64,000 nt of DNA, taken from the NCBI GenBank assembly GCA_012517905.1, contig JAAYUE010000034.1:6752-70751 (forward strand), read 5' to 3'. This DNA is from Clostridiales bacterium (lineage in GTDB: Bacteria > Bacillota > Clostridia > Christensenellales > CAG-138). The notes beneath the pieces were generated by a model. That model did not search any database. It was not told the DNA's origin and worked only from the letters and a program-made list of their open reading frames with translations. Within the stretch, counting starts at the first letter, position 1; each line of letters begins with the position of its first letter. This document shows, in pieces, positions 1 to 44,296 of this stretch. A program made the translations under genes and the position numbers.

Positions 1-1
1 G

Positions 2-3000
2 TGGTACACGATGGATGCCGAGGGGAACGCGACGTCCGCCGGCAGCGTGGACGTGTCCGCCTATTCGCCCGTCTACCTTGGCAAGACCGTCGAGGCGGAC
101 AAGGAAACCGGCGATGTGGACGGCATGGACGAGGATACCTATGAGGACACCGTGGCGGATACGACGCCGAGCTCCTCCTCGTTCCAGTCCGCCAGCAAGG
201 ACGGCACCTCCGCGATCGTACAGTCCGGCTCCGCGCTGGTTGCGGGCGTGGACATCAACGTGCTCGCGGGCGACGTGCTGAATGCAAACCTCATCGGCGG
301 CACGCTGGCCATCGGCGGCACCGCGGGCGTGGGCGTCGGCCTCGCCGTCATGGTGCTCTTCTCCGATGTGTACGCGACCGTCAAGGACGGATCGACGCTT
401 TCGGCCGGCGGAGACGTGAACATTACCGCCATCAGCGGTTCGAACGTCAAGCCGGTGCTCAATAATGTCGATACGCTGACCGATTCGGACGGCGTCAAAT
501 ACATCCACTACAAGGGCGCGGACGGCAACGACTACTACATCAGCCAGGACAACGGAAAGCTCTATACGATCAGCGGCGGCACGGCGACGGAGTCGAGCTA
601 CGACGGCGAGCTGACGCTCGTGACCACCGGCGACGAAGGCGACGCGCGCGGCGAGCAGGCTTCCCTGATCAACGAAATCGCAAACAGCAAGACCAATGCC
701 GGCGGCAGCAGCACGATCCGCCTCATCGGCGTGACCGCGGCGGGCGGCACGGTCGGCGTGGCGGTTACGCTCGGCGCGCTGTTCGTGTTCAGCAACGTCG
801 AAGCCATGCTGGAAGGCGACGTGCTCGACGCGGATGCGGTCAACGTAGACGCCGAGATGAACTACGGCGAAGTGCTCACGGTCACGGTCGGCATCGGCGC
901 GGGCGCGGTCGGCGTGAGCGTATCGGCGGGCCTTGCGTTCTTCCTCGGCACGGTGACCTCCGCCATTGCGGGCGACGCGAAGATCGGCTCTGCCGGCAAC
1001 AGCGTCGGCAGCGTGAATGTCACGTCCTTTGGCACCACGAAGGCGCGCACCGCGGCAGCGGGCATCGCGGCGGGCGCCGTGGGCGTCGGCGTGAATATCG
1101 CGCTGGCCGTCAACGTCACCAAGATTCGCACCTATATCGGACAGGGCGTCACGGTCTACAGCGTGGGCGCCGTCGCCGTCGATTCGCAATTTGACACGCA
1201 TGCTGAGGGATACATCCTCTCGATCGCGGCGGGCGCCGTGGGCGTCGGCGTTTCGGTGGTCATCGTCGTGGCCTATGCCGAGAGCCTCGCCTATATCGGA
1301 CGCACGCCGGACGGGTACCTTGCGGATACGAAAGCCTCCGCGAGCACAATCGGCGCGATCCACGCGGGCAGCGTGCGCGTGAAAAACGAGCTCTTTGCCG
1401 AGGTGTTCATCGTAGGCTTCAGCCTTGCGGCGGGCGGCGTCGCGGTCAACGGCCTCGTCACGCTCGGTTTTAACTATGCAACCGCGCTCGCGGCGATCAA
1501 CCGCATCAACGTCTATACCCCCGGCAGCGTGCTTGTGGAGTCCGCGCTGGACGGCGACACGACCATCATCACGACCGCGCTGGTCGGCGGCGGGGTCGCC
1601 GTCGGCGCGACGGTCGCGGTTTCGGTGCTCGCGGCGCAGAATCTGGCGCTGATCGACATCACAAACGTCATGTTCAACGCGGGCAGCGTTGCCGTCAACG
1701 CGGGAAGCGCGGCGAAACCCTTTGACGCGGAGGCGCGGACCGTCGCCGTTACCGGCGCGGCGGGCGGCGTCGCGGTTGCCGTCAACTTCGCCATCGCCAT
1801 CAACATTACGAAGAATTTCGCCCGCTTGCAGGGCACGAACGGGACGCTGGATATCACCGGCGCGCTCGCGGTCCTCGCGGTTGGCAACACGCGCGCCTAC
1901 GCCGTGATTGCAAACGTCGCGGTCGGCGGCGTTGCGGCGAATGTTTCGCTCGCCATCGCGGTGATCCGCAGCGAGCAGGAAGCCGTCGTCAATCTCCCGT
2001 CCGGCACGGCCACGGCGGGCACGGTCACCGTGACCTCCGAGCAGAACACGACGAACGACATCACTGGCGGCGCGTTCGGCTCCTTTACGCTGACGGATAC
2101 CGGCACGGACGATCGCAGCATTCTCTTCCACTCCATGGCGTGCGCGTTCATCTTCTCCGCGTCGGCGGGGTGTGTCTCCATCAACGCGAATATGGCAATC
2201 GCCGTTGCGGACGCGAAGGGCACGGCGCTGCTCGACGCGGCGCATTTCACGAGCGGCGCGATCTCGGTCGTCAGCAACGGTTCCTCCATCGCAAACATCG
2301 TCGTCGATAATTTGACCATCGCCGCGATCTCCGTTGGCGTGATGGTCGGCTCCGCCACCGCGGCGGGCGAGTTTACCGCCGCCGTCGTCAGCCGGGGCGG
2401 CATCGTCCCTGCCGGCGATCTGACCATTCGCACCGACTACAACAGCATCGCGAACGCCGAAATCGTACCGGCGGCTGCCGGCGTCAGCCTGGGGCTTGCC
2501 AGCATCGGCGTGAACCTTGCGCTCTCCGTCGCCTGTACCAAGGCGTACGCCTACCTCTCCGGCGACGGCATTTCCAGCACGATGAATGCAGACGAAGTGA
2601 CCGTATCGGCGATCGGCCTCGTCCAGGCAGATTCCTCCGTCGGCGCGCCGTACTTCACGATCGCGCTGGTCACGGTGACGGCGAACTTCGCCACCGCCAT
2701 CCTGAGCGCGGAGCAGAACGCGTCGATTGAGAACATCAGCCTCACGGCGGGCGGGGACGTGACCGTCGAATCGAAGTTTAATCTCAATGGTGAAGGCGCG
2801 GAAGCGACCCTCGGCAAGAATAAAAACCTCGTCACGCAGGTGCTCGGCGACGGGGATGCGCCGACCATCAGCGTTACGCTCGCGCTGTACTGCGTCAACG
2901 CCAACACGGCCGTCGCGACGAGCGACGTCACGAGCCGCGCGTTTATCTCCGGCGCCGCGCTGGACACCAGCGGCGCGCTGAACGTGACCGCGGCCGGCAA

Positions 3001-6000
3001 CGCGCTGGCAAACGCCAACGTAACGACCACCTCGGCGGTCGGCTATATCGCCGTCGGCGTGACGACGACGTTCGCCTACGCCAACGGCACGTTTGAAGCG
3101 TACATCGCAAGCGCGAGCGGCGCGGATATCGAGGCTTCCTCCATCGAGGTTTCCAATACCTATACGGCCAACGCGCAGGCGGTCACCATGCAGCCCAACG
3201 CCGGCGTCGGGTTCACCATCGCGCTCGGCGCGTTCAGCTCCAACATCGCCACGGCAATCGTGGGGACGATCGCAAAGGTATATATCAGCGGCAGCGGCAA
3301 CGTGACTTCGACCGGATCGATCGATATCCTGGTGGACGGCCTGGCGCACGCGATCGCCTCCAACGAAAAGCCGCTGTTCCAGCTGACAGCCGTCAGCATC
3401 GCGGCGAATATTCTCACGGCGACGCTCGCGGCGGGACAGTCCGCCTATGTCAGCGGCGCGAACGTGACGGCAAGCAGCCTGAGCGTCAACGCCCGCTTCA
3501 ACGACGACCGGCTGATCGGCTATCAGGTCGGCGACGCAGGCATGTTCATCGATACGATTCACGACAGCGGCGTTCTCGTGGGCACGGTGACCGTCGGTGG
3601 ACTCGATTATACGGTTTATAACTTCAACGACCGCGACTACTACGTCCGCGGCGGCGAGGTGTTCGTGCGTCCGGGCGCGATTGCGAGCCTCGGCGGCAAC
3701 GGCGCGACGGGCAGCGGCACCACCAGCGTCTCGCTCGTCTCCGTCAACGTGGATACGGCGGTCGCGACCGCCGATACGTCCAGCATGGCGTATCTCTCTG
3801 GCGGCAACATCACGATCACAAACGACCTCGTCGTGCGGAGCGTGGCTCGCTCGCTCGCGGAGGCGCTGATTACGAACGATTCGTTCAGCATGGGCCTCGT
3901 GGGCATGGGCATGGCGCTCATGTATGCCAACGCCGACGGCGACTATCGCTCCTATATCAAGGGCGGCTCGGTGCGCGCGCGCGGCGTGCTCGTCGAGACG
4001 CGCTACTATACCAACGCGCGGGCAAAGACCACGCAGCCTTCCAACGGCGCGGCGGTCACCGGCATTTCGGTTGAGACGAATATCGCAACGGCGATCTCCG
4101 GAACGGAAGCTTCGGCACAGCTCTCCGGCAGCGGCGAAATCACCGCGACCGGCATGCTGAGCCAGTGTTCGCTGGACAGCGAGGATCCTGATTCACCTTC
4201 GGCAAGCTCCATCGTCGTTCGTGTGATCGGCAGCGGGCATGCGGACGCGGGCGTCGCCATGCCGCTCGTGAGCGTCAGCGCGATCAGCATCGCGGCAAAC
4301 GTGCTGACCGCGCAGATGAGCGCTTCGCAGGCGGCGACCATCGACGGCGCAAGCGTCAAGGGCGGCTCGATCCTGGTCACCTCCACATTCAACCAAAACG
4401 ATGCTTCGCCCGCGGCGACGGCGATCCTCGGCGGCAATCTGAGCGGCGAAGGCATCTCCTTCTCGCTCATCAACGCGTCCGTCAACAGCGCGGTCGCGCT
4501 GAGCAACGTCGCAAGCCGCGTCTACATCAGCGGCGGCTCGATTTCCGGCCCGACGGCGGGCAGCAGAGCGATTTTGAGCGCGTTCAGCGGCGGCAACTCC
4601 GTGGCGTACGCGAATATCGCGCAGAATTCCAGCGTCGGCCTTGCGTCGATCGGCCTCAACCTGCTCTACGCCTACGCGGACGGCACGTTCGAAGCGCTCG
4701 CGGGCGGAAACATGGAGCTTGTGAGCCTCGACGTCGGCGTCGAATACACCTCCCGCGCCATCGCGTACACCGGCGCTTCCAGCTTCTCCGGCAATCTTGC
4801 GAGCCTGGACGTCAACGTCGCCATCGCCGACAGCGGCACGGTTGCGACGGCGGGCGTGATCGGCGGGTTCCTCTACGAGGTTTACACCGACGGCGTCAGC
4901 AACTATTACACGAAAGACGACGGAGCTACGTTTGTCGACGCCGCGCTGAACCCCGTAACAAACGCGGCGATCCTGAGTAGCCTCACGCCCGTGATGGCGC
5001 AAAAGACCGTCACCACCGCGCGTGAAGAGCTGACAAACGCCACCTACGACGAATACCGCAAACCCACCGCCTACCTCTACACGCCGGACGACGGCAAGAC
5101 CTGGTATACCTACGGCGGCGGCGTGCTCACGCCGTACTATGGCGGCACGCGCGGCTATGAGCAGTCCACGGCGGGCGACGAGGCGAACACCGCGATTACG
5201 CAGACGATCGGCTCGGTCAGTTATCTGCGGTATGAGCTGGACGACGCTTGCCTCTATACGCCGGACAACGGACAGACCTGGTACACCTATCAGGATGCGG
5301 CGCTGACGCCGTATTCCGGCAGCACGGCGGGCTATGTCGCCGGCGATGAGGGCGTTACGCTCACGCTCGCAAACGAGAGCGAAGGCGAAAAGGTATACGC
5401 CGTCTACGAAAAGGCGGGCGAACTGGAAAAGACCGACCGCATCACGCTGGAAGCGCTGGCGCGGGCCGATTCGACCAGCCTCGTCATTGGCGGCAAGACC
5501 TATCAGGTCTATCAATACGGCGGCAGCACCTACTATGTGCTGGACGACGCGATCTATCTGCTCGGAGACACGCAGTATCTCTACAAAAACAGTGGGATCT
5601 ATTATCAGCTCGTCAACGGGCGCATGGAGCAGGTTGACGACGCGAGCGGCTTCCTCCCCGTGATGGAGCGCGTGAGCGCGCGCTTTGGCGGCACGATCAA
5701 CGTCACCGGGGACATCGACGTGACGGCCGTCGGCACGGGCGACGCGATTGCGGGCGTGCAGGCGCCTTTGATCAGCCTCGCGCTGATCGACATCGCCGCG
5801 AACGTCGTGTATGCGTCCCTCTCCGGTGTGCAGGAAGCGTATATGCAGGATGCGGACGTAACGGTCAGTCTCCTGAGCGAAATCAACATCCTCTCCGAAT
5901 ACAATAAGATTGTTTCGGGCGATCCGGAACATGGCGCGTTTGCCACAATCGGCAACTCCGACGTGAGCGCCTCGCTCGTGAGCGTGGTCGCCAACAGCGC

Positions 6001-9000
6001 GGTCGCCACCAGCGACACCAAGGTGCGCGCCTATACGCGCGGCGTGTCCGTGATCGGTTATCACGGCGTGCTGAACGTCAGCGCCGCGGGCTCCTCGCTG
6101 GCGAACGCAACCGTGGAAAGCGGCAGCAGCGTCAGCTATGTGGGCGTCGGCCTCGTGGTGCTGTTTGCCTACGCAAAGGGTACGTTCGAAGCCTTCATCG
6201 ACACCAACGGCTACAACACCGCGGGCACTGTCACCGGAACCTCCGCGGTTCGTGCCTATTCCATCACGGTGGCAACGAACTATACGGCGCGCGCAGGCGC
6301 GGTGGTCTCCGCGCCGAACGGCGGCGTGAACGCCGGCGTATACGGCTTTAACGTCAATCCCGGCGTCGCGATCGTCACCACGAACGCGCTTGCGGGCATC
6401 CTCGGCGGCGGCATCGTCGGGTCCGTTGCTACGCAGGATATGACGGTGACCGCGACGGGAGACACGAACGCCACGGCGCGGGTGGAAACCCCGACGCTGG
6501 ACGTGCACGCCGTGTCCATCGCGGCGAACGTGCTTGTTGCGATTCTGCGTTCGAGCCAGCTTGCGCTCGTTTCGGATGTAACCATCGAACAGGCGAAGTC
6601 CCTCAGCGTAGTCTCCTATCTGAACATCCTCGACGACGCCAGCAATCCCGGCGCAAGCGCCTATCTCGGCGGCACGGGGAACGGGACGTCGATCAGTCTC
6701 CTGAGCGCGAGCGCCAGCGTCGCAATTGCGAAGAACGACGCACGCGGGCTCGCCAGAACGCAGAACATCACGATCGGCTCGAGCGGAAATCCCGCGTCGC
6801 TGACGGTCTACAGCGTCGGCCGCGCGTACGCGAAGGCGGACATCATCCAGCCGAGCGGCGTCGGCCTGATTTCGCTGTCCCTCAACGTGCTCTACGCCTA
6901 CGCAAACGGCACATTTGAAGCGCTGGCGGGCTTCGGCTCCGGCGGCTCGTATCTGAATCAGCTCTCCACAACCGCGGATTACGCGGCGTATGCGGAGGCG
7001 TTCACCGGCTCCGGCCCGGTGAATGTGGGCGCTGCGAGCTTTGCGGCCAACGTCGCCTACGCCGAGACCGGCACAATCGTAAACGTCGGCCTCATCGGCG
7101 GCACGCTCCACTACGTCGGCACAGCGGATCTTTCGCTCTCCGCGGACGGCTCGGGTAAGGCGTATGCGGGCGTGCGCGCGGCGGAGGTCTCCCTCCACGG
7201 CATCGAGGTTGCGGCAAACGTCGTCATCGCGAAGCTGACCGCGGAGCAGAACGTATTTATCCTCGATACCGACCTGACGACCAGCGGAAACGTCAGCGTG
7301 ACATCCATCTATAACAAGAACAGCAACAACACGGCGAGCACCCCCTGCGGCGCCGTCGCGGCGATCACGAGCCCGGATGTGGATGCTTCGCTCGTCGGCC
7401 TGCAGATCAGCTCCGCCACGGCGATTACGGACGCAAAAGTGCGCGCCTACACGCGCGCGTCCTCGATCGCGGCGAACCAGCTGACGATCCGGGCGTCCGG
7501 CAAGTCCATCGCGGTGCCGACCTACACGCTCGGAACAAAGCTCGGCGCGGTGCTGATCGGCGTGGTCACCCTGTACGGCGACAGCGCGGGACTCTTTGAA
7601 GCCTACGCGGACGTGAGCAACAATAAGACCATCACGGTCAACAGTCTCGATATCGACACGGACTACACCGCCTCCTCCGACGTCACCCTTGCGGTGCCGG
7701 AAGGCGGCGTGCAGGCGGCGCTCGTCAGCGGAACGACGAACTTTGGCTATGCGCATGTGACGACGAAGTCCAACGCCGGCGTACAGGGGAACGGCACCAT
7801 CGTTGCCGCGCTGGTCGACGTGCTGGCAAAGGGCGTCGCGACCGCGTTTGCAACCGTGCAGACGCCGAGCGCTTCGCTCACCGCCATCAACGTGACCGCA
7901 AACGTCATCATCGCGGCGGCGGAGGCGGTACAGGAAGCGTTCCTGCGCGATGCGACGTTCCGCTGCGGCAGCGTCAGCGTGGTTTCGAAGATCAACGAAA
8001 CCAACACGGAAGCGAGCCCCGCCGCGAAGGCGACGCTCGGCGGCACGGGCAGCGGCGTTTCGCTGAGTCTGTACAGCGCGTCGGCGAGCTCCGCCACCGC
8101 GACGAATAACGTCGTGGGCCGCGCGGTCGTCGAGAACATCACGATTCCGCAGGGCACGACCGGCAACACGCTGACGGTGCAGAGCTACGGCAACTCCTAC
8201 GCGCTCGCCGACATCGTGCAGGCAAGCGGCGTCGGCCTCGCGACGCTGACGGTCAACGAAGTTTACGCCAACGCAAACGGCAGATTTGAGGCGCTCCTTG
8301 GCGTCAACGACGTCTATGTGGAGACGCTGAACCTGCTCGTGAGCTATAACGCGAAGTCCGTCGCGCACACCGGCACGGGCAGCAACAGCATTCAGATTTC
8401 CGTCGAAAAGGTGACCTCCAACGTCGCAATCGCGCAGACGAACGTGATTGCGAGCGCGGGCCTTACGGGCGGCAATACCTACGAAGTTTACAAAAACGGC
8501 GCGAGCTATCTGTACAAGCTGCCTGGAAGCAGCGCGTGGTACGCGCTTGACGGCAACCAGATGACGCTCTACACGGGCACGGTCAACGCGTCGCAGTATG
8601 TGAAGACCGGCACCACCGTCCGCACGGGCGGCACGATCCACTTCACCGGCGCAAGCGCAAATCGCACGGTTTCCGTGCTCGGCAATGTCTACGCGCTGGC
8701 AGGGGAGACCGCGCCGTTGGTCGACCTTGGCGCAATTTCCATCGCGGCGAGCGAGATTACCGCGGAACTCAACAGCGTGCAGAACGCCTTTGTGGAGAAT
8801 CTGACCATCGATCTGCCGAACGCAAACGGCACATTTACCGTGAAATCCATCCTTAATATGGACGACGGCGTCCTCAACGACTATTCCCACGCCGGAAAAG
8901 GCGGAGCGACGGCGTATGTCGGCGCGTCCGACGTCAGCGTCCAGCTGCTCGGCGTCGATATCAGCAGCGCCACGGCGTTCGCGAACGCCGCCAGTAACGC

Positions 9001-21000: not shown

Positions 21001-24000
21001 GATCGACATCACCGCGCAAACCGGCAGCTTTACCGGAAAGACGATCGTCCTCGACCAGACCACGGCAACCTATACGATCTATGGCGATATCATTCTGGAA
21101 AGCGACGAGAACGATTCGCCTGATTTCCATAGCTCCGGCAACGAGGTGCTCACGGCCACCGACAGCACGGTGACTTTCGTAAGCGCGAGCGGGGACATGC
21201 GCTCCGACAGCATCCACGATTCCTGGGTGATCACGCGCAGCACGCTCGATATCACGCTCGCGGCGGGCAGTCTGATCGTGCGCGATTCCGTATCGATCAC
21301 CGACCAGAGCACCGTGACGATCCTGACGCAGTCCGGCGGCGCGGCTATGCGGACGTTCGGCGGGGATACCTATTATGCCTACACCGACGGAACGCGCGAA
21401 TTCTATACGCTCGACGCGATTCTGACCGGCAGCTCCGTGTTCTACATCGAGTCCGCGCTGACGGCGGGCCTGCTGCTCGAGTACGACGTTTCCGAACTGA
21501 CGCTTACGCAGCTGTTCAACGGCCGCGTGATCACCGCCGACTATCGCAAGGGCGACATCCCGCTCTGCCCCGTTGAGATCATTCCGGGCCGCGAGGAGAC
21601 GTTCTGGCTCGTGGTCGACAGCGCGCTGACGATTCACGCGGCGTCCGAGGTGGAGATCAGCCACTTCACGGCGCAGAATTCCGACGTGGTCATCACCTCC
21701 CTGACGACGGGCGGCGCCATGACGACGACGGGAACCGGCGCAAACGGCGGCGGCGGATACACCGGCAAGACGCTTCGCTTCATCGGCGGCGAGGATCGCG
21801 GAAGCTTTGAACTGACGGTCTGGGGCGACATCGTCATCCTCAACGACGAAAACGACAACGACGAGGTCCACGGAGCGGATGTGTTTACGCTCACGGACGC
21901 CGAGGCCGCGCTGACCTCCGTCAACGGCGGCGTGAATTCCGGCAGCGTTCACGATCTCTGGACGATTACCAACAGCGCGCTGATCGTTACGGCGCAGCTC
22001 GGCGCCGACATCGGCGAGGGCGGTACGATCACCGACAGCGACGTCGTCTTTATCCTCCACACCGGCGGATTTACCGCCAACGATTCCGAAACGAACAAGG
22101 ACACCTGCAGCGGCGACAGCGTCGTTGCCGGCAGGGACGAAAGCGAACTCAATCTGGTCCACAGCACGCTGATCGTACAGGCGGCGGCGGATATCGACAT
22201 CAGCCACCTGGTTCTGACGGATTCCGTCGCGACGATCTCCAGTCTGGCTAACGCCGCGGGCGAGAGTCTCGCCTACGGCAGCACCGCCGTGGCGGGCGGC
22301 GCGCTGACGGCGCGCACGATCCTGGTCGTCAACAGCGCGTTGATGATGGATATCTGGGGCGATCTCACCATCGCAAACGACGAAAACGACGGCGCGGCGT
22401 TCCACGACGACGGAAACGTGCTGACCGTTTACAGCGACGGTGCGAGCGCGAAGGTCGACTGGGCGTCTACGCTTGCCCTTCCGATCTATCGCGGCGTGAC
22501 CATCACAAGCCACGTCGGCGGCGTGTATTCGAACACCGATCACGACAGCTGGTATATCGAGTCCTCCGTCGTGACCATTCAGGTCAGAGAGGACGTGGTC
22601 ATCCGCGACACCGTGCGGGTGCTGGCGAGGCAGGAGACCCTGAGTCTCAACGGAAAGACCTACACCGTCTACGATTACGACGGCATCACCTGCTACTATG
22701 ACGGCGAGAATTATTACCTGCTGGAAGGCGGCGCGCTGGCGCTCTTCAGCGAGACGGCGAACTTCTACGAAACGCATCTGATCAGCCAGAGCGATTATCA
22801 GATCGTGCAGGATGCAGATACGTATTATTACCACAAGCTCACCGGCGTCGGCGGGTATTATGTCATGGCGGACGGCGACCTGACGGCGGTTACGGACGCG
22901 GTCCTGCTTGCGCGGCTTGTTTCCGCATCCCCGGTTACGCTCGGCGGCGAGGCGACGTTTGAGCTGTTTGAGAATCCCAGCGGCGGCGTGTACCTCAAGC
23001 TGAACGGCTTCTTCTACATGTTCCAGGACGGCAGCTTCGCGCCGGTCATCGATTTCTCGAGAATGAAGCCGGTGGACGGCTCCGTATTGACCATCACGAG
23101 CACCGTCGGCGGGCTGACGAACGCGGACTATGACGCCGTGTCCTGCAACAAGGATTCGAATTACCCCGGCCGCGAGGAGAGCGCGTGGATCATCGATGGC
23201 TCCACGGTCACGGCGCAGATGGGCGGATCTATCGAGATCAGCCACCTGACGATCGACAACTCCGTCGTCACGCTGAGCAGTCTGACCATCGGCGGCGAGT
23301 CCGTGCCAGTCGGCACGGGCAGCTACACCGTTTGGCTCCACAGCGACGAAACCACCGGACAAACGCTCTATTACTTCCAGAACGGCAAGTATTATCTCTA
23401 CGTTTCCGGCGCGCTGGTCGAGGCGGCCAAGCCGGACACCGGAGATTTCATCGCCGTCAACGAAGGAACGAGCTACATCCTTTACAAGTATGCCGGCACG
23501 CTGTACTACCGCAGCGGGGATACGTATTATCTGTTTACCGAAGCGAACTACGTGATGAACCGCGAGGTGCTCTCCGACGAGTCGAAGGAAGAGCTGGTCG
23601 CCATATCGTCCGGAAACGAATACGCGGCGTTCGTCAGCTGGGACGAAGCCAACCAGATTTCGTGGATGTACTATACGATGACCGGCAGCGACTGGTACAA
23701 GCTCGAACTCACCATGGACGTGGACAACGTCTTCCACGCGGTGCTGAAGGCGATCGACCTGGCGTATGTGCCGACGAACGTCGTACAGGTGAAGGACGGC
23801 AGCACGGGCCTGTATCACGCCTACAAGCTCTTTATGGACGAGAGCGACGGCAGGCTCTACTACGTCTACGACAACAGCTATTACGCCTACGAGCGCGAAA
23901 CCTTCACCATGGAAGCGCAGACCGCCACCAGCATGGCGGCGATTCACGGCGACACGGCAAATCCGATGCAGCTGGTCGATCCGCAGTACGTCTCGGGCGG

Positions 24001-27000
24001 CGGCGGATATACTGGCAAGACCGTGGATGTGAACGCGAGCAGGCTGACCATCGACGTATACGACGACATCACGATTACGAGCGACGAAAACGACGCGTAC
24101 GATCCGCAGCGCGGCGACTATTACGACATCATACTGAGCCTGACGGAGTGCAAAGCGGAGGACGAGGTATACGATACCGCGAGCGGCGCGACCGTCTCCC
24201 GCGGCGTGTCGTTTACGAGCCGGAACGGCGGACTGGATTCCACGGACGACGATTACGCCGTCTATGTGGACGACGCGACGGGCAAGCTCTACTTTGAGAA
24301 GAACGGCGTCTGGTACGCCTACGACAGCAACGTCGTGCTCACGCCGGTCGGCGGCGTGGACGAAACGCTGCTTACGAGCGCCTATTACGTCGTCAACGGC
24401 GTCACCGTCTATGTCGACGCGGTGATCGAAGGCTATACGGTCCTGCAGGACGCGGACGGCAACCGCTATGTCAAGATCGGCGACGACTGGTATGCGTTTG
24501 GCTACGATCCGGCGTTTGAGCAGATCGAGACCCCGACGGGCACGCTCAGCCGCGTGGACAACGCGAGCGATAACTACGCCGCCGCGGAAGAAGGCACGAT
24601 CTACGATCGGAACGAAGTGACCTACAGCCTCCGCCTCGGCAGCAACCACCTCGACAGCACCTCGTACAATCCGGCGTATGAAGGGAAGCTCTACTTCGAA
24701 AAGAGCGGCGTGTACTATTACTACGACGCAGCCACCGGCAAGCTCGTCAAGGCCGATACGCTCAATGCGGACTTCATCGGCATTGCGGCGCTGCTCGACG
24801 TCGGGGCGACGAACTATTACGATTCGTGGCTCGTGGACAACAGCACATTCTATGCGGACGTGTACGACGACATCGACATTCGCGATTCCGCGTTCTTCAC
24901 GAACTGGACGGTCGCGTATCTGGGCTCCAGCGCGGGCGGCCTGACCAACGCGGACTACTTCATCGACCACGACGGCGACGGCATCGGCGATACGCTGGAG
25001 CGCTCTAAGTGGAGCATCAACAGCAGCTACGTCGACATGAAGATCCACGGCAACATCCGCATCGACCATCTGTTTGCCGAGATCAGCTACGTGGCGCTCT
25101 CCAGCGAGTTTGGCGAGATTCTGTCCAAGACCTGGTATGTCCTCGGCGTCCGGCTCGAAGTCGAATCCGGCGGCAAGATTCAGGTCATCAACATGGATGA
25201 CACCGGCGTTGTGCCGGCGCCCGCCGTACAGATCATCTGGTGCCAGGACGATCTGATGATCGTCAGCGCGAAAGCCTCCGAAACCAGCACGCCCGCCCAG
25301 AAGTTCATCGGACTGATGGTGAGCATCTACTCGCGGCTCGGCGGGTTCACGGCCTCCACCTGCGACGGGTATGTCTCCAACTCCAACACGATCGACTTCT
25401 ACGGCACGGCGAGCACCATCGATATCGAGGTCAACGGGCAGGTTTCGATGGCCGAAACCGAGATCAACGTGGAAGACCCGAACGTCGTCTTCCAGAGCGT
25501 CGGCCGGACGGCGAGCAGCACCTCGGGGCAGATGATTACGGACACCGTGACCCACGGCGACATCTACCAGTATGACGAAGCCAAGGGCAAGCCGCGCGTG
25601 ATGATCGACGCGAACTTCCCGGATCATCACGACCGCGCGTACGGCTCGGAGATCAACATCAAGAGCCACAATGGCGATTTCCCGGCGAACACCTGGCAGA
25701 TTGCGGGCGCGAAGGTCGTCAGCGACGTGACCGGCACCGAAGTGCTCAACGTCAAGAAGGGCATCACCAACGTCAACATCATCGTGCTCCACGACATCGA
25801 CCTGATCTACAACCTGTCGGATCGGACGGCGGAGCATATCGAAAAATACGGCGAGAACATCACGAGCCGCGCGCTGACGATTCTGGACGGTTCCATCGTC
25901 GAGCTGACCAGCACGCAGGGCAGCGTCGACGTACTCTACAACCCCGCCGGATCGAACTACTCCACGCAGAACATCCTCGTCTCCGGCGCGGAACTGCCCG
26001 CCTGGGAGCTGATCTGGCTTGGCAGAGCGCAGGACGCGGTGGTGGCATCGTTGATCATCCATGCGCTCGGCGACATCCGCACGGATGTGACGCAGGCAAG
26101 CTGCGCGATGCTCGACTGGTACTCCCTGGGCGGCAGCCTCTACTTCGACCGCATCGAAGGCTACCACACCGGCGTAAGGCTGGAAGCGTCGGGCGATATC
26201 TTCGCGCTCAACAACAGCACGGAGGAAGGGCTCGTCCTGCACAACATCATCCGGCTGACGGGCAGGGCGGGAGCCGACTGGAGCACGGACGCGAGCCTGA
26301 CGCTCAACGCGGGTGGCGATATCGGCAAGACCGGCGCCTGGACGTATCTGGACGTTGACTGCGACGTGACCATCGAACACGTCCATAACCTCTTTATCGA
26401 CCTGCAGAAGCGCGACGCGCAGGATATGCTCGCGACCATCCGCAGCTACCTGATCTCCTACGGCTACACGGAAGCCGCCGCGGGGCTCTTGGCGCAGTAT
26501 CTCATCGAAACCTACGACGACCGCGACTACCTGAGCTACAGCGACGAGTATTTCTACACCGTCATGCTGAATATCCTCTCGGAGTCTCAGTTGAAGGATT
26601 GGCTCTATGCGCGCGCCAACGTCGTGTATGCGGGCGGCGACTATGAATACGGCTGGGTCTACACGATTCGCCACGACGGCGCGCTGTCCGATACGCTCTG
26701 GCAGACAGTGCTCTCGATGGCGCGCGGCAGCGCAAGCACGGCGTCGATCGCCACGATCCGCGCGGCGTTCGGCAGCGCGATCGCAAACGAGATCGCGGCG
26801 CTGCTGGCCAACACGGCGGACCCGTACGGATATATCGCGAACCATGCGACGGCGGAAGACATCTTTAAGGATATCTACGAAAAATCGTTCCTGACCTCCA
26901 GCTCGAATGCCTATGCGGGCACGGTTCGGATCGATTCCACGCATGCGCGCGCGGTGTTCGACAAGTTCTACGGCGGCGGCAAGGTCGCCTATGTGCAGGA

Positions 27001-30000
27001 TATCTCCGGCAACGCGGCGACGAACGGAACGGTCTACGACCTCGTGAACTACCTGTTCAACATGGACGAGGCGTACCGCGAGGCGACGCTGACCGAGCTC
27101 TACAGCCGCGCGGTCATCGCGAGCACGAGCGGGCTCTCCGATCTGATTCAGCAACGAACGGCGCAGCAGGCGAACTACGACAAGGCCGCTGCCGACAAGC
27201 TCGCCGCCGAAGCGAAGATCAAGGCGGCGCAGCAGGTCATCCGTGAGACGGAGCAGAAGCAGGCATACTTGCAGGCGCAAATCGATGCGCTGTTATTGCA
27301 AACCCCGCTGCAAACGAGCCGGATCAACTCGCTCAACACGCAGATTGCCGCGCTTAACTCGATCTACACCGCGCAAAACGCCCTGATCGCGGCCGGCGAA
27401 ACCGCGGTCACCGACGCGAATGCGCGCATGGAAAGCGCGCAGCAGCAGATGGACGCGCTCAACACACGCATCGCGCAGATCAACGACGCGTACGCAACAT
27501 ACAGCAAGGACGGCGGGCTGAGCGCGATCGTCCACACCGAGGCGAACCTGAAGAAAGCGTACGTCTCGCAGGCGACGCTGACGCAGCTTTATACCAATAC
27601 CTACGATATCTTCGACGTGTCCGGGCGCGCGTACTATTCCGACGGCTCCGGCATGTATGCGCTGAACGACTGCATCCTCTACAAGGCGTATTTCGTTAAC
27701 GGCGAGCTGCTCTTTGACGGCTTAGACGGCTGGTATACGCTGACCGACGGCGCGTTTGCCCGCACAGGGACGCCGGGCGACACCGACGTAACGGAGGCCG
27801 CGACGCAGCTGACGCTGGGCGCGGTGCTGCTGGGCGAAGGATATACGCTCTGGATCGACGAAGCGGACGGCGCGCGCACCGTCTACTACACGCAGGACGG
27901 CGCGAGCTTCAGCACCTATGCCGCCGGTCGCACCAGCGTCGAGCAGGATATGCACGAGGCCGAGGAGCAGATCGCAGATGCGGCGCAGGCAATCGGCGAG
28001 GCGGAAGCGGCGCTTGCGCTGGCCAACGCCGCGCTGATCGTAGCGCCCGACCTTGCGGCGCGCACCGCGGCGTATGCCGCGCTCCTGCTCGCAAAAGCAA
28101 ACCTGAACGCGGCGCTACTTAACGGGCAAGCCGTGCTCGCCGCCGTCAACGCCATGCTGAGCACGCTCAACGGCGAAGACACCTATTCCGAACAGTCCCT
28201 GACCGACGCGGTCGATCAGGCGGCGCTGCTGCTCAACGAGCTCGACGCTTCCGGCCTGTACGGCGCGTCCGCCGGCGAGAGCATCGCCGCCGCCGAGGAC
28301 TTCCTGAGCGCCTCCCAGAACCTCCTGAGCAAGGAGCAGGCCGCGTGGGCCGCCGCCAAGGTGGATTACGAAGCCAAGCTCGCCGTCTACAACGCGAAGC
28401 TGGCCGCCGTGAAGAAGCTCACGCCCGGCACGCCGCAGTATATCGCGGCCGATCTGGAGCGCGCCGACGCAGAGGCGCAAAAGGACGCCGCGCTGACGCT
28501 CTTAACGACGTTTACCTCGGATATCACGAAGGAGATCAACACGGCGGGAACCGGCTCGCTCGATCGTGCCTGGAAGATGGTGGCGGACGCGCAGGCCGCG
28601 CTGGAATCCGCGCGGGTGAACGCCATGGCGCTTAGCAGCGCGGCGGACACCGCTTATGAAACCCGTGAGAAGCTGATCAACACGCATGTGGACGAGGATG
28701 CACGCGTGGCGAATCTGAGCATCGGCGAGATCACCGGCGAAGCGTACGTCTATAACGAAGGCGATATCGTTATCACCGTGGACCGCTCGATCGACGTGCC
28801 GTCCCATGTGGAGCTCGACGAGGGCGATATCACGCTGGGCAACATCTATTCCGAGCGCGGCGATATCACGATTACGAACCGCACGCTGTATCAGGTTTAC
28901 GAATACGAGTACACGGACCCCGTCAGCTTGGTTGCGACCGTCAGCGAATACTATCTGGCCGCAAACGGCACCGTGCACGTTCTCGACGCGCTGGGCCGCC
29001 TGACGGCGCAGACGGCGGTGAAAGAGGCCGACCTGCTGGCGGACGGCACGCTGCTTGGCACCTACATCGGCGGCGGCAGCATCCTCGCAGCTCAGCTTGA
29101 CGACACCAATCCGCTCTATCGCGACCAGGAGAGCACGCAGCCCGGCGCGAACAATTACAAGAATGACGCGATCAACGACGAGGGACAGGATGAGACCGTG
29201 CATGTCAACGGCAACCTCTTGACCTTCGTTGCCAAGGGCGATATCGGCACCGCCGCGCATCCGCTCCTGATCGAGCAGCGCGACAACGCGCCGGTCAAGG
29301 TCGTCAACGCCGACGAGGATCTGTATCTGAACCAGGGCACAAGCGAAACGGTGCACGAGACCGCGTTTGGCACCGCGTTCGGCGAGCGCTTCGAAGAGCT
29401 CCTCGATCCGCTGCGGAACCTCCTCCTGACCGGAGAGACGCAGCCCACGCCGGCGGATATCGCGTTCCTGATCGCAGCGGGCGCAAAGCTGAACGCGGGC
29501 TGGACGATGGAAGACCTCCGTACCGCGCTCAAGACCGCGAACGACACGGACGGATACTGGTACAACCTGCTGAACATCGGCAGCCTGCCGTACCTGCTCG
29601 CGCTGGAGGTTGCGGTTCGCTACGACTGGCTGCGCGTGGACGACAGGACGGTTGGCACCGACCTGAACGCGCGCTCCGAGATGGGCGGCGTGTACATCGG
29701 CGAACTGACGGGCGATCTGAACATCGGCGAAATCTACGCGCGCGGCGACATTTCTCTCACAGCTCCGGGCAGCGTCTACAGCACGCTGACGGCGGACGAA
29801 CTGAGCCAGAACAAGCTGAACATCGAGACGGACGGCTCGGCCAGCGTAACGGCGACGACCGGCACCGTTGGCACGGGCGCGAAGCCGCTCTACGTGAACA
29901 TCGGCAACTTCGACGCCGCCGACTACGCGAGCTATCGCGACACGGCGCCCACGGGATTTGCGCAGGGCGCGTACATGGGCGGCGAAATGAATACGGTCAG

Positions 30001-33000
30001 CCACGGCGGCGTGTATCTCAGAAGCGAGGACAACCTCGTGCTGAATATGGACAGCGACGCGCGTCACGTGGAGGTCGAGACCGTTCGTCTCACGAACACC
30101 ACTGCGTACGCAACCGGCGATATCGCCGTGCACGACATCAACGCGGGCGCGACCGCGGCGCTGAGCGGCTATGCAAACAGCCTCGGCAGCGTGACCGTGA
30201 CGAGCACGGCGGACATCGGCACCAGGACGCATCCGTTTACGATCGTCTCGGTGGTCAATCCGGACAACGCGATCTACGGCACCGTGACGCTCGAAGGCGG
30301 CAACGTCTACGTCAACCAGCAAAACGGCGACGCGATTCTACTGTCCGTGATCGCGCGCGGCGAGCTCGTGCTGACCGTGCCGAACGGCAGCATCATCGAC
30401 GCGGGCGCGAGCGGCATCAACGAGCTCCTCGAGCGTCTGCGCGACGCGCTGCTGCGCGCAAACGATACGCAGAACATACTCGACGAGCTGCTGGCGCTGA
30501 AGGATTCGCTCACCAACAGCGGCAGATCCCGTCAGACAGCCGAGGACGAATACGACGCGGCAAATCTCGCGCTCTCGGCGGCTGAGGCGGCGCGCGACGC
30601 AGCGGCATTGGCAGCCGCGGCGGCGGACGCAGCGTATGAAGCCGCGCTGGCGGCGTACCTGCTGGATCCGGACAACGCGGCCAGCTATACGGCGCTGTAC
30701 GACGCGTACGAGGCGGCGCAGGTTGCCGCCCGCAGCGCGGCGGAGGCGGAGGACGCGCTGAATGCCGCGCAGGCGCGCTTCGACACGGCGGATGCGATCC
30801 GTCAGCTGTTTATCGACTTTGACGACGCCAACGCGGCGCTCGCGCAGGCGGTGCTGGATCGCCGCAGCGCGGCGGAGACGGAGATAGACGCGCAAAACGA
30901 CGTACAGACCGCGCAGGCGGCCTATGACGCGGCGTTGCTGCTGGCAGGCGGCAACACCAAGGACCCGACGGTCGTCGCGGCAAAAGCCGCGCTGAACGCC
31001 GCCATTGCGGCGAAGGCCGCGGCCACCGCGCAGTTGCGGCAGATGCAGGCGGCGGAGACGGCGGCGCAGACGGCGTACAAGGCCGCGTTTACCGCGATGA
31101 AGTACTACAGCAACTTCGACGAACGCGGCAAGATTCATATTGAAGAAGCGCAGGAAGCGTACGACGACCTCGCGAAGGACAACGGCTACGCCTCCGGCGA
31201 CGATGCGCTTGCCGCGGAAGCCGCGAAGCTCGGCCTTGCACAGGCAACGCTCAGCGCGGCGCAGAGCGCGTACGATCTTGCGCTTGCAAACGCGACCGCC
31301 AATCCGGGAGACGCCGGGTTCGCCGCGGCGCTGGTTGCGGCCCAGGCGGCGCTCGATCAGGCGCAGAAGGCTTACGATCAGCAGTACGTCGTCTGGAACG
31401 GTTACAATACGCTCAAGAACAACCTCGTGTCCGTACAGGATGCGGTTGCCGCCGCCGCGCTCCGGCTCAGCGAAGTAAACGTGGCGTTGATCGACGCCGG
31501 AATCGCGAACGAAAACGCGAAGACGGCGCAGCAGCTCGCGAGCGACGCGCTCGCGGCGCAGATGGCGGTCAACGACGCGCAGGACCAGATCGATCAATAC
31601 GCGGCGAAGGCCAACGAGGCAAAGCTCGCAAGAGACGCAGCCGTCTCCGGCAGCGCGGCGTACTTTGCCGCGCAGAAGGCGCTGGACGACGCGATCCGGC
31701 GCGGGACACAGGCGCAGCACACGTTCGACGCCGCAGCTTACCTTGCGAGCGCGACGCTGGCCGCGATGGATGCGTATGACGCGTATCTGGCCGCGCTTGC
31801 GGCGGACAGCGTCACCACCGAAGAGGACGAATACAACAAAGCCGCCGCCGCCGTCCAGGAGGCGCAGGCGATACTCGACAAGATCAACGAAACCAACGCG
31901 GCGCAGGATGCGCTGGACGACTTTAACGCTGAACACGGTCTGGAAGCGGGAACGACGGAAGAAATCGACCTCGCGATTGCGGATACGATCGCAAGCCTGG
32001 CGAACGCCGAAAACGACGCGCTGCTGGCCCAGGCGGCACTGGACGCCGCAAATGACGCCTACGCGTTGGAGGCGGCGCGCCTTGCGACGCTGGGCCTGAC
32101 GGCGAAACAGCAGCAGCAAGCGCTCGCCGGACTGCTTGCGGACGTGCAGCTGAAAGAGCAGATGTTGTCGGCGGCGCAGGCGGAGGTCACGCGCCTTGAG
32201 ACTCTGCGCGACACGCTGATTCAGCAGCGCGCGCTGACGGCGGATCTCGAGCTCAAGCAGAGCGACGAGCGTAAACCCGGCACGCAGCAGCTGGCCGTGG
32301 ACGTGCTGGCGGCGCTGAAACAGTCCTACGAGCTGAACAACGCCTCGTCGCCGTATGCGGACGAAGCGGACGATATCCTCAAGACCGCGAAGTATGCGTT
32401 TGAACAGCAGTTGATTCTGGACGCCGCCGTGCAGGCCGCCGGCGATGCGGCCGAAGCGCTGCAAAAAGCGATCGACGATCTCAACCGCGCCGAATCCGCC
32501 TACGACGACGCGTTTGCCGTGTATACGCAGGCGGAGGAGACGCTGGCGCAGGCCGAGGCGGACTACAACGCGCTGATCAGCAGCGGCGCGTCGACGGCAA
32601 CCGCGCGCAAGAAGGCGCTGGCGGCGGTCAATCTCGCCAAGGCCAGTCGCGATGCGGCGGACGAAATCTGCGCCGCGGCGGCGCTGGCGCTGTACGACGC
32701 CCAGACAGCAAAGGCCGAAGCGGAAGCCGAAGCGATTCTGGCGGCGGCGGTTCCCGGCGTGGACGACGATCCCGAAACCGTGCCGGACGAGTCGACGCAG
32801 CTCTATCGCAACTTCTACGACGCGCTTCGTCTGCTCGACCAGGCTGAAGAAGCCGACCGGACGGCGAGAGCCGCGGACGAAGCGCTGGCGGCGGATCAAG
32901 CGCTGCGCGATGCCGCGGACGAAATTGCCGCTTTCATCACCAAACTCGACGCCGCAAACGAAGTCGTGTACGGCGAAGACGGGCTGCAGGGCATCGTGGA

Positions 33001-42321: not shown

Positions 42322-43593
42322 TCATAATGACATAATCTTTTGTTTCACTTGGGAGATGTCTTCATCTTTTTTCAACAGCAGATGCGGGTTCGCCCGAATC
42401 AAACGACGTTCCCGCGCAAGCGCATCCATTCCTCCGCCGGTGACGTTCAGCATGACAGCCGCATTTTTTTCGATCGATCCTTCCTTTGCTTTCCGAATCA
42501 GCGATGCGAGCGCTACGCCTGCCTCGGGGCAGATATCCCGCCCTTCCAGCGTTAAAAACAGATCCTGTGCCTCCCGCGCCTCGCTGTTTTCGACAGCGAC
42601 GACGTCCCCGCCCGAATCCATCAGCGCGTCGTACAGCCCGCCGATGATGCCATACGGCGGCTGCCGATTGGAAAGCACCTTGGCGTCGATCGCGTCGATC
42701 TGCTGCCGCGCTTCCTGCTCGTCCAGCGGGTCCAGCGCGCGGCTTTTCTTCGCCCACGCTCGGGCAATCGGCACAAACGGCAGGTTCTGAGATACGATGA
42801 GCCGCATCTTCTTGGGGGCGAAGACGCCGCACGCGTTCAGCCGCAGGTTCGCTTCATGCGCCGCGATCGCGCCCGTACCGCTGCCGACCGCCTGAAAATA
42901 GTAGTCGGGAATCTCGCCGATGGCGGCCGCCGCGGAAAGCACCGTCGTTCCCATGCCGTCCCGCCGGCCGACATTCTTGGCGCCGCCCTCGTTGACAAAC
43001 CCGTCCAGGCGCGCGATCGCGCCTGCCATGCGGATCGCGTCCAGATAGTCCGCGCCGTCGCCGACCGCGATGATTTTGACGCACGGGTGGAGGTCTTCCA
43101 GAGACCACAGGCTGTCAAGGTTCGCCTCGGGCACCACGATCACGGCCTGAATATGGTTTTCGGATGCCACTTTCATGAACGCCCGCGCGGTATTTCCGGC
43201 GGAGGCGACCACGAGTGTGCCGCTGTTTATCGGCATTCTGGCGCAGACGGAATACGCCTCGCATTCCTTAAAGGTCCCCGTCATCATATTCGCGCCGATT
43301 TCGGGCCAGAAGCCGTTAAATGTGACATAGAGTCGATTCAGTCCCAGCGCGCGGCCGAGTTTCGTGCTCAGGTAGGTTACCGGCGCGCCGTCCGACTTGA
43401 TAATCCGGCTGACGGGAAGCCAGTCGGAATATCGGAATATCCCGGGCTGCGTTTCCCGAATGCGAAACTTCTCTTGCGGATAGATCGCGCGCATCAGCGC
43501 CAGATTTGGCGACTCCGGGTTTTCCAGCAGCAGACCGTTGTCCGCAAATTCACGATATGTGCCAAGGCATACCAGCTTGTTATAATTCAGCAT
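42322..43593 (-). CDS. threonine-synthase-like fold-type II PLP enzyme, cysteate synthase-like
   Basis: The probable start is ATG at 43593 (GGAGG 8 nt upstream); TTG at 43608 is an alternative. The PLP-lysine context is MMTGTFKECEA and the Gly-rich loop is AVGSGTGAIAA. The ~420-aa length and the lack of a Thr-synthase SFKDRG signature fit cysteate synthase. Adjacency to an alpha-oxoamine synthase and an SDR supports this call. Confidence 0.55.
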   Translation of the reverse strand: MLNYNKLVCLGTYREFADNGLLLENPESPNLALMRAIYPQEKFRIRETQPGIFRYSDWLPVSRIIKSDGAPVTYLSTKLGRALGLNRLYVTFNGFWPEIGANMMTGTFKECEAYSVCARMPINSGTLVVASAGNTARAFMKVASENHIQAVIVVPEANLDSLWSLEDLHPCVKIIAVGDGADYLDAIRMAGAIARLDGFVNEGGAKNVGRRDGMGTTVLSAAAAIGEIPDYYFQAVGSGTGAIAAHEANLRLNACGVFAPKKMRLIVSQNLPFVPIARAWAKKSRALDPLDEQEARQQIDAIDAKVLSNRQPPYGIIGGLYDALMDSGGDVVAVENSEAREAQDLFLTLEGRDICPEAGVALASLIRKAKEGSIEKNAAVMLNVTGGGMDALARERRLIRANPHLLLKKDEDISQVKQKIMSL

Positions 43594-44292: not shown

Positions 44293-44296
44293 GCCG

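Follow-up and report, generated by a model that had tools for sequence, protein, structure and literature searches.

We analysed a 64,000-nucleotide (nt) stretch of DNA from the Clostridiales bacterium assembly GCA_012517905.1 (contig JAAYUE010000034.1, positions 6,752 to 70,751 of the forward strand), here called the window, more than half of which is taken up by part of one giant gene. Frame +2 stays open from the window edge for 11,758 sense codons before a TAA stop codon closes it (Table 1). An earlier description made from the letters of this DNA, to which we refer as the sequence-only reading, had reported a single frame of more than 35 kb that covers 55% of the window and is still open at its edge, and both six-frame translation and the GC content at third codon positions (GC3) confirmed this. 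The 11,755 codons counted in that description are explained by the first in-frame ATG, at base 11. This ATG is internal and not a start, because the orthologue on the complete Christensenellaceae chromosome OY762278.1 (locus L001) has a valine there and its frame stays open through the entire 10 kb that precede the first residue of the window protein. Roughly 3.5% of random codons at the base composition of the window are expected to be stops, and an open run of this length is therefore impossible by chance. GC3 is uniform at 0.74-0.86 for each 3-kb block, which shows that the coding signal is continuous along the frame.

The giant gene has a GC content of 59-66%, against 43-59% in the 29 kb downstream, where neighbouring genes have a GC3 of 0.43-0.74. 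Part of this excess is accounted for by the Ala/Gly-rich composition of the protein. The orthologous stretch of OY762278.1 has a GC content of only 54.7%. On the minus strand of the giant gene, the codon-aligned frame has runs of 559-2,512 codons without a stop (range 2-35527; for example 19757-27292, 4196-9622 and 30341-35527). Since TTA, CTA and TCA, the reverse complements of stop codons, are nearly absent (10 of the 11,758 codons), these antisense open reading frames (ORFs) are a by-product of codon usage. Equivalent antisense ORFs are annotated as genes on the ENA scaffold L012 (1-2226, 2238-2537 and others), so that public annotation of such loci contains spurious proteins.

Orthologous loci, integrity and extent of the gene

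A scan of GTDB representative genomes gave three orthologous loci, and the ENA metagenome scaffold L012 was found via the cluster member P0009. L001, a metagenome-assembled genome (MAG) with a complete chromosome of 3.9 Mb on which the gene occupies at least 2,443,480-2,465,279 and runs on past both ends, covers residues (aa) 1-3936 of the window protein with 75% identity over 3,939 columns, and the ratio of nonsynonymous to synonymous substitution rates (dN/dS, Nei-Gojobori) was 0.13 overall and 0.06-0.16 per 500 codons. L012 covers aa 6277-7411 (81% identity, dN/dS 0.24) and aa 7566-11758 (83% identity, 4,195 columns, of which 3 are gaps; dN/dS 0.19), and it ends in the same peptide and stop codon as the window protein. 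Gap columns number 9 against L001 and 3-4 against L012. Orthologues share 77-81% identity in the C-terminal region, where dN/dS is 0.15-0.32. The window is collinear with four independent assemblies, three of which (L001, L003 and L012) show an unbroken frame over the stretches covered. These results indicate that the gene is under purifying selection along the parts that can be compared (aa 1-3936 and 6277-11758), in agreement with the selection on the product for which the sequence-only reading had argued.

The same reading had described an architecture of several repeat systems, coiled coils and a unique centre, and had raised the collapse or expansion of repeats in the assembly as a concern. 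The architecture stands, with the qualification that the repeats are not near-identical: comparison of the giant gene with itself by BLASTN gave four self-matches, the best with 68% identity over 484 nt, there are no exact repeats of at least 40 nt within the gene, and at the protein level the internal repeats share 25-50% identity. The repeats are ancient, and with DNA copies so diverged an assembly collapse or expansion is unlikely, which leaves a small risk.

An N-terminus lying beyond the window had also been proposed, together with an extension upstream to look for the true start and a secretion signal, and both were found in orthologous contigs. On L003, a contig from a MAG labelled Oscillospiraceae, the open frame reaches 3,997 residues beyond the window start in the upstream direction. 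The most upstream 700 aa of L003 were used as query on JGI metagenome contigs and identified L004 (Ga0209373_10010817, 76% identity), the frame of which starts at an ATG located just past a stop codon and after a 430-nt AT-rich intergenic region. The L004 protein begins with MIWQTVRDFTHSKLMRAMFALLLVFLMVFFMPWGRSALA, followed across the putative cleavage site by EVDT. Its basic n-region, hydrophobic core of 17 residues and cleavage site of the A-x-A type predict a Sec-type signal peptide, which is thus present in this orthologue as well as in paralogues; the window itself lacks the 5' end of the gene. Residue 1 of L003 corresponds to residue 866 of the L004 protein, and from 865, 3,997 and 11,758 residues we infer a composite length of ~16,620 aa (roughly 1.7 MDa), a figure that joins orthologues 76-87% identical. 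The upstream part, as seen in the orthologues, carries Flg_new_2 domains, which are divergent InlB B-repeats, together with LktA-type repeats of a more canonical kind. The giant gene of L004 is preceded by a gene for a tetratricopeptide-repeat (TPR) protein.

Modules, relatives and neighbouring genes

The modules of the window protein are listed in Table 1. At its beginning, 19-aa hydrophobic segments recur each ~58 aa across aa 101-656. The super-repeats share 25-45% identity by self-BLAST, and their sub-repeats have the core [VL]S[LA]VS[IV]xxNxAxAx7AYIxGx7GxLxVxS; with a purpose-built hidden Markov model (HMM) we found ~55 sub-repeats between aa ~300 and ~4000, those at aa 700-4000 being mostly not strongly hydrophobic. 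Inserted between repeat blocks are aromatic modules with the consensus GGxTYxVYxDGxxxYYxxDG..YY, which apart from the largest one lie at aa 1203, 6015, 6781, 7124, 7554-8100, 9201-9300 and 11439. The non-repeated centre (aa 4751-5650) was unmatched by any related protein fetched, and the fetched orthologous contigs do not span it. The second repeat system is made of ~90-110-aa units ending in ..TSxxGGFT with ~22-aa beta-helix-like sub-periods; it is very acidic (net charge -252), has aromatic modules interspersed, and is 81-84% identical to its counterpart in L012. Both helical regions contain stretches with 55-60% helix formers, 3-5% Gly plus Pro and a 3.5-residue periodicity, and the first (Ala 21%, Leu 11.5%) is interrupted by the aromatic module at aa 9201-9300. 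The most widely conserved part outside the repeats is a core at aa ~9860-10175 (nt 29579-30526), found in at least 18 family members at 25-40% identity. With 0.3% Cys and a net charge of about -700, the window protein has a composition typical of extracellular proteins.

Table 1. Features of the giant gene and of the DNA directly downstream, in window coordinates.
Position (nt)	Residues (aa)	Strand	Feature	Evidence
2..35275		+	Open reading frame, the C-terminal 11,758 codons of the giant gene; start upstream of the window	GC3, dN/dS
179..1981	~60-660	+	Gly/Ala/Val-rich hydrophobic LktA-type repeats (GGxAGVGVxLAV...) every ~58 aa	Hydropathy peaks, NCBIfam
317-448	106-149	+	NF012206 match	NCBIfam LktA_tand_53
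1844..11581	615-3860	+	Twelve ~240-aa super-repeats, each of four 55-60-aa sub-repeats	Self-BLAST, HMM, alignments A2/A3
4874..5686	1625-1895	+	Largest of ~20 aromatic modules	Regular expression, alignment A5
5699..7141	1900-2380	+	Segment modelled with AlphaFold2	All-beta, pLDDT 87.8, pTM 0.88
12002..14251	4001-4750	+	Beta-rich module after the repeats	Conserved in up to 17 other family members (25-34% identity)
14252..16951	4751-5650	+	Non-repeated Tyr/Thr-rich centre	Self-BLAST, composition
16952..25201	5651-8400	+	Second repeat system	Self-BLAST up to 50% identity, composition
25202..27121	8401-9040	+	Non-repeated beta module, then helix-rich module	
27122..28681	9041-9560	+	Helical/coiled-coil region 1	Composition, 3.5-residue periodicity, weak helix-rich family matches
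28682..30391	9561-10130	+	Beta-helix-like module (by sequence)	
30392..33721	10131-11240	+	Ala-rich helical region, 1,110 aa	Ala 29%, Gly 2.9%, diverged internal repeats
33722..35275	11241-11758	+	Beta-rich C-terminal region	Found only in orthologues
35276..35278		+	Stop codon TAA	Same C-terminal peptide (...VTLEPNA, then stop) in orthologues L012 and L011
35515..35553		.	Perfect 18-bp-stem hairpin and T-run	~240 nt past the stop of the giant gene
35955..38775		+	~880-aa lipoprotein (MKKISSLILLLTVLCLMFVAC...) with glycoside hydrolase family 5 (GH5) cellulase-like domain, start near 36127	GC 47%

Searches against domain and structure databases were almost entirely negative. Pfam gave nothing on the window protein at E<=0.01 in 3,000-aa tiles, and nothing credible at E<=5 on 525-1,100-aa tiles of aa 4001-11758; weak matches to DUF5649 (C-terminal region, E 0.0044), DnaJ_C and fn3_5 were rejected as noise. 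There was nothing at E<=0.2 in a PDB sequence search of the window protein, nor in PHROGs on the tiles scanned (aa 1-2000 and 4001-11758). NCBIfam was scanned with aa 1-9000 and 9001-11758 in large tiles and with aa 1-4000 also in 400-aa tiles, and the sole match in the window was NF012206 LktA_tand_53 (35.2 bits, E 1.1e-8; cut-off 50 bits), while a match to the aminopeptidase PRK10199 (E 0.017) was rejected. Two upstream tiles of L001 also matched LktA_tand_53, in four stretches each, with 18.7 and 32.3 bits. The E-value in the window is significant and the scores lie below 50 bits, which points to repeats of a homologous type and not to membership of LktA_tand_53 by the NCBI rule. A profile-profile comparison linked the canonical LktA-type copies over the full repeat length with the less hydrophobic copies of aa 1900-3700 (P 4.9e-5). 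The sub-repeat HMM fails to detect the upstream repeats of the orthologues, which are a distinct and more canonical LktA flavour.

Known adhesin and toxin types were looked for as well. The filamentous-haemagglutinin models Fil_haemagg and Fil_haemagg_2 had no Pfam match in the window protein, and no match in Pfam or NCBIfam was found for features of RTX or type-1-secreted adhesins such as LapA, SiiE and MpIBP (BIg-type repeats, RTX nonapeptides, type 1 secretion signal). The RHS/YD repeats of WapA-type wall-associated toxins gave no RHS_repeat match in Pfam, and the genes downstream include no small one that resembles an immunity gene. The Pfam, PDB, NCBIfam and PHROGs searches revealed no known catalytic, toxin or binding domain. 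The aromatic modules resemble choline- or glucan-binding repeats by eye only; this identification is not supported, as Pfam (CW_binding, Choline_bind) gave no match on the tiles covering them, and a profile of these modules (A5) against PDB had a best E of 1, with no choline-binding or glucan-binding (CBP/GBD/CROP) match. The sequence-only reading had found that no single known adhesin family fits, and the null results in Pfam, PDB and PHROGs, together with one sub-threshold NCBIfam repeat, bear this out. It had also suggested two kinds of model for such searches, of which the LktA type provided the only lead, with NF012206 below its threshold, and the filamentous-haemagglutinin type no match.

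For the main repeat we cut the repeats of the protein itself into six two-unit windows without overlap, aligned these as input for AlphaFold2 (multiple sequence alignment A2) and modelled aa 1900-2380. The model has a mean predicted local distance difference test score (pLDDT) of 87.8 and a predicted template modelling score (pTM) of 0.88, and is entirely beta, with strands of 17-30 residues, about two per 58-aa sub-repeat. Foldseek found no analogue in PDB (best E 0.1, template modelling score (TM) <=0.15) or in BFVD (best E 1e-3, at TM 0.13). The weak matches in PDB were nearly all to beta-solenoid or beta-arcade proteins, namely curli CsgA, FapC, two-partner secretion (TPS) domains, tapirins and pectate-lyase-like enzymes. 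The main repeat is thus predicted to adopt a fold with no solved counterpart, which we infer to be a flattened two-sheet stack. A model of the C-terminal 519 aa from a three-row alignment (pLDDT 38) is unusable and supports no claim.

A word-indexed search of 5.8 billion proteins returned fragments only, with four matches to aa 1-1000, two orthologous fragments matching the C-terminus and one orthologue matching aa 9560-10200. Using HMMER, a profile of the twelve-unit super-repeat (A3) was then run on 1.84 billion representatives and identified 180 proteins at E<=1e-3, 71 of them at E<=1e-30, the lowest E-values being 0. The window protein matches A3 by construction, and this definition of a family is therefore meaningful for the relatives only. 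Every named source is a "hypothetical protein [Clostridia bacterium]" from Clostridia MAGs, and no close homologue is characterised; NCB91906.1, HPK15755.1 and HOS17739.1 are named members of this giant repeat family. Many representatives (within P0014-P0059) are 7,300-7,984 aa long, and several of them have a signal peptide and end mid-protein. It appears that the protein libraries have an upper length limit near 8,000 aa, with the largest proteins missing or shortened there, which would explain the absence of the giant protein from the representatives. Pfam had no match on two 4,700-aa members scanned in full (P0163 and P0091), and the only precomputed Pfam match seen in the family is Flg_new_2 in L014. 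The family is shown to be very small and nearly free of recognised domains and, by the names of its members, to come from uncultured Clostridia only.

Several relatives carry predicted export and anchoring signals. N-terminal signal peptides are predicted in P0015, P0021, P0034, P0036, P0046, P0048, P0049 and P0072. At the C-terminus, P0079, P0163 and P0011 have LPQTG or IPKTG sorting signals, and P0014, P0015, P0064, P0071 and P0091 have a membrane helix with a basic tail, so that P0015 (7,587 aa) combines a signal peptide with a C-terminal anchor. A signal peptide together with a sortase or membrane C-terminus is the hallmark of monoderm surface proteins that are anchored at the C-terminus with the N-terminus outward. 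The window protein ends in SLRNVACEINVTLEPNA before the stop, without an LPXTG signal, membrane anchor, basic tail or recognised wall-binding domain, and the end of L012 is identical.

The super-repeats, the module of aa 4001-4750 and the module of aa 9860-10175 are shared with the family in this order. Family members carry 2-10 matched super-repeat stretches and are 4,700 to at least 8,000 aa long, whereas the window protein has 12 copies in a composite of ~16,600 aa and possesses, in addition, the unique centre, the second repeat system of 2,700 aa, helical regions that total 1,600 aa and an anchorless C-terminus. P0011, located on the 50-kb long-read contig L014 (ENA ERZ21869602 ctg90234l), is collinear with the window protein at 30-40% identity: it runs from Flg_new_2 through repeats to modules equal to aa 8268-9208 (30% identity) and 9692-10192, is shorter, and finishes in a sorting signal. 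On L014 this paralogue (1-30772) is called as three same-strand ORFs of >1,198, 2,973 and 6,923 aa, each junction bringing a change of frame, due either to assembly frameshift errors or to a truly split locus. Following its IPKTG signal are a gene for an Rce1-like CPBP protease and a YoeB/RelB toxin-antitoxin pair.

Downstream of the giant gene, the hairpin in Table 1 is likely its terminator and belongs to a 129-nt element. This element occurs at 35434-35562 and 48806-48932, in copies 90% identical that each end in the same 39-nt perfect hairpin, CAAAAACAAGAGCTCATCAAAGATGAGCTCTTGTTTTTG. One copy lies 156 nt past the giant gene stop and the other is intergenic, 13 kb away; the element had no Rfam match at the gathering threshold and may represent either a small RNA or a mobile element that carries a terminator. 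Scans of the whole window for Rfam families and tRNAs were likewise empty. The GH5-like lipoprotein gene has a perfect sigma-70 consensus promoter (TTGACA-16-TATAAT, 35955-35982) and is a transcription unit separate from the giant gene.

Farther on, a minus-strand cluster (39168-48090) encodes a glyoxalase-fold protein, a short-chain dehydrogenase/reductase (SDR), a class I/II aminotransferase, a PALP enzyme, an Fe-S protein, a CobW-type GTPase and an ABC ATPase; ahead of these genes come those for an AgrC-like GHKL histidine kinase (45993-47342) and for a LytTR response regulator (47323-48090). The cluster may represent a small-molecule or quorum-regulated pathway. At 49101-60060 there are 'heavy-metal chelation' genes (DUF364/DUF4213), a metal transporter of the ZnuABC type (50699-53215) and a set of molybdoenzyme genes of the xanthine-dehydrogenase family (53375-60060), all of them genes of ordinary metabolism that help to place the window in an anaerobic Clostridia-type chromosome.

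Possible functions of the protein

From the features of the sequence and of its relatives, we consider it fairly probable that the gene encodes a Sec-exported, extracellular and very acidic giant fibre or adhesin of ~16,600 aa in uncultured Clostridia (Christensenellaceae- and Oscillospiraceae-labelled MAGs). The protein would leave the cell through the Sec pathway, given the signal peptide in an orthologue and in paralogues. After export, the ~58-aa LktA-like repeats would stack into a wide flattened two-sheet beta structure, which we call a "plank", the second repeat system and the module of aa 9860-10175 would form beta-helical shafts, and the two Ala-rich regions would form long helical stalks. 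A surface fibre assembled in this way, hundreds of nm long, might attach to host material, plant particles or other cells, with the non-repeated centre and the aromatic modules as candidate binding parts.

Several observations weigh against this reading. The greatest weakness is that the orthogroup does not have the anchor of its relatives or a wall-binding domain, so that retention on the cell is unexplained and release is possible; Sec export and surface anchoring are predicted from relatives only. The signal peptide and the ~4,860 upstream residues are taken from orthologues 76-87% identical and not from the source genome. The two-sheet geometry is our reading of a model built from an alignment of just six rows of internal repeats, and the binding role given to the centre and the aromatic modules is a guess. 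Finally, L011 (GCA_030153525.1, JASEKR010031915.1), which corresponds to 31068-36612 of the window at 96.8% nucleotide identity, has 33 one-base gaps that break the frame, and the 3' end of the giant gene is called there as six genes. Because the gaps are tightly clustered single-base deletions (13 within ~170 nt), some of them in intergenic DNA, we read them as errors of noisy reads, which is what they look like, decay in that strain being the alternative; of the 85 substitutions within the ORF, 56 are third-position changes.

Another role for an exported protein of this kind would be as a structural part of the envelope, a sheath, S-layer-like plate or intercellular scaffold in which beta plates tile and coiled coils link to the wall. 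The predicted two-layer plates of the LktA-like repeats have hydrophobic surfaces that could self-associate, purifying selection appears strong and uniform over all modules, and a GC3 above that of the neighbouring genes could reflect codon optimisation of a costly, abundant product. However, such abundance is unsupported, a chain of 1.7 MDa per unit would make for expensive tiling, Pfam matched no SLH, CWB2 or other S-layer anchoring domain in the window protein, and a family with 180 members in 1.84 billion representatives is very rare, unlike general envelope components. We therefore regard an envelope part as unlikely.

The repeats themselves suggest a secreted membrane-active cytotoxin like LktA of Fusobacterium necrophorum, with hydrophobic repeats inserting in target membranes and the protein released. 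The LktA tandem repeat is the sole matching database family, at E 1e-8 in the window and in the upstream tiles of L001, the hydrophobic segments of aa 101-656 have the ~58-aa spacing, and the missing C-terminal anchor, which relatives possess, is compatible with release. Against these points, every score with the LktA model is below the 50-bit cut-off, most repeats (aa 700-4000) are not strongly hydrophobic and come out of the modelling as a soluble beta assembly of regular build, and 7,700 further residues of shaft-like or helical modules have no counterpart in LktA. LktA is moreover a protein of ~3,200 aa exported by a two-partner system in a diderm, while the orthologue here has a Sec signal and no TPS domain, and the relatives are predicted wall- or membrane-anchored surface proteins. 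A toxin of this type seems to us doubtful, somewhat more so than a role in the envelope.

In the same measure doubtful, but of wider consequence, is the idea that the ~58-aa LktA-like repeat represents an unsolved fold class, a wide two-layer parallel beta plank with strands of 17-30 residues, and that in monoderm gut Clostridia ~7,000 residues of it, with beta-helical shafts and a 1,100-residue helical stalk, make up a released or loosely held intercellular device that is no passive adhesin but membrane-active or transferred between cells, as proposed for Cag_665. If this were true, bacteria would widely use the LktA repeat, by a mechanism so far unexplored, as a module for contact with one another or with host cells.

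It is still less probable that we are dealing with a contact-dependent delivery device, a giant filament that carries variable C-terminal cargo or injects itself into a neighbouring cell, as has been proposed for Cag_663/Cag_665 and CdiA-type toxins. The layout is common with Cag_665, with LktA-like repeats N-terminal and beta-helical repeats further on, and the C-terminal 518 aa occur in the orthogroup only while upstream modules are family-wide, which is the pattern of a variable end. However, the sequence identity and dN/dS of that end between orthologues show it to be conserved and not hypervariable, signatures of a toxin, a pre-toxin (VENN, PT) or an immunity gene were not found, and the downstream gene is the separately promoted GH5-like lipoprotein. 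The sortase signals of relatives further indicate that the producer lineage is probably monoderm, and no parts of type V or type VI secretion systems were seen.

The weakest alternative, that there is no functional gene and the frame is a repeat-chimera artefact or a decaying pseudogene held open by its composition, could invoke the gaps and six gene pieces of L011, the L014 paralogue split over three ORFs and a high GC3 that keeps the antisense frame open as well (up to 2,512 codons), but we rejected it as hardly credible in view of the GC3 along the frame, four collinear assemblies of which three are without frame breaks where covered, dN/dS values of 0.13-0.24, the third-position bias of the L011 mismatches with gaps patterned like read errors, and DNA repeats too short and dissimilar to mislead an assembler.

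Comparison with known systems

An exported surface fibre or adhesin, the reading that we prefer, can be compared with LktA, whose repeat is the only curated model to match. Both proteins have tandem ~53-58-aa repeats with a hydrophobic Gly/Ala/Val-rich segment. LktA is ~3,241 aa long, and the window protein has about five times its length and many modules without a counterpart there. In the diderm F. necrophorum, LktA is encoded in the lktBAC operon and leaves the cell by type Vb (two-partner) secretion, whereas the window family has a Sec signal and no TPS domain. NCBIfam describes NF012206 LktA_tand_53 as a 'tandem repeat-containing filamentous protein'.

Cag_663 and Cag_665 are giant haemagglutinin-like symbiosis proteins of the green sulfur epibiont of 'Chlorochromatium aggregatum' (Kuzyk et al., bioRxiv 10.64898/2026.03.19.712371). 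The N-terminal 5,100 aa of Cag_665, which include LktA-like repeats, were predicted by AlphaFold3 to form a 'laminated plate' of two layered beta-sheets with no structural homologue (bioRxiv 10.64898/2026.03.19.712371). Cag_665 resembles the window protein in being giant, in having N-terminal LktA-like repeats followed by many beta-helical repeats, and in being Ca-binding or acidic. It differs in belonging to a diderm phototroph, in its filamentous-haemagglutinin motifs recognisable by InterPro and in having no long Ala-rich helices, the comparison being one by description only.

TpsA, FhaB and CdiA proteins are likewise very long and secreted, with beta-helical shafts and non-repeated inserts, and the weak Foldseek matches (TM <=0.15) include the TPS domains of EtpA, HMW1 and HxuA. 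The window family differs from them in that it lacks the TPS domain, Fil_haemagg repeats and, in L004, a TpsB neighbour. The N-terminus of L004 gives only Flg_new_2 in Pfam (1,443 aa) and nothing in NCBIfam (880 aa), with no TPS domain (Haemagg_act), and two-partner secretion was rejected on this ground. No TpsB (Omp85-type) neighbour was seen in the ~1.9 kb visible upstream in L004, or downstream in the window, where the GH5-like lipoprotein follows. Since a defining feature of each is absent, the protein falls outside the TpsA/FhaB, RTX, Rhs and choline-/glucan-binding classes and, as far as this orthogroup goes, outside the LPXTG class.

Giant uncharacterised Clostridia genes of 10,000-30,000 codons are known from mammalian gut metagenomes (West-Roberts et al., bioRxiv 10.1101/2023.11.21.568195). 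They share with the present gene the size class, the taxon, a presumed role in adhesion and Listeria-type repeat domains, found here upstream as Flg_new_2, which occurs in upstream parts of the family proteins. That survey lists Listeria-Bacteroides, YG, dockerin, leucine-rich repeat (LRR) and ShdA domains, none of which was detected in the 11,758 aa of the window protein. With such genes on record, the size of the present one is no novelty in itself. What this analysis adds is a defined family of 180 representatives, the evidence for selection, the link to the LktA repeat and a confident repeat model without a solved counterpart.

If the composite length holds, the protein is among the largest of bacteria, in gut-associated Clostridia lineages for which there is no cultured model, and about 11,700 of its consecutive residues are without an annotated domain. 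The family may serve as a marker for a surface structure that could govern the attachment of Christensenellaceae- and Oscillospiraceae-like bacteria, and the LktA-type repeat with its predicted "plank" fold offers a concrete target for structural biology. There is also a warning for annotation, given that the gene is missing or fragmented in protein databases and that antisense ORFs of up to 2,500 codons are deposited as genes. In relation to the systems compared above, we classify the product as a giant secreted fibrous surface protein, built on an LktA-type repeat and otherwise unannotated modules, with a predicted Sec-dependent context and putatively sortase-anchored relatives.

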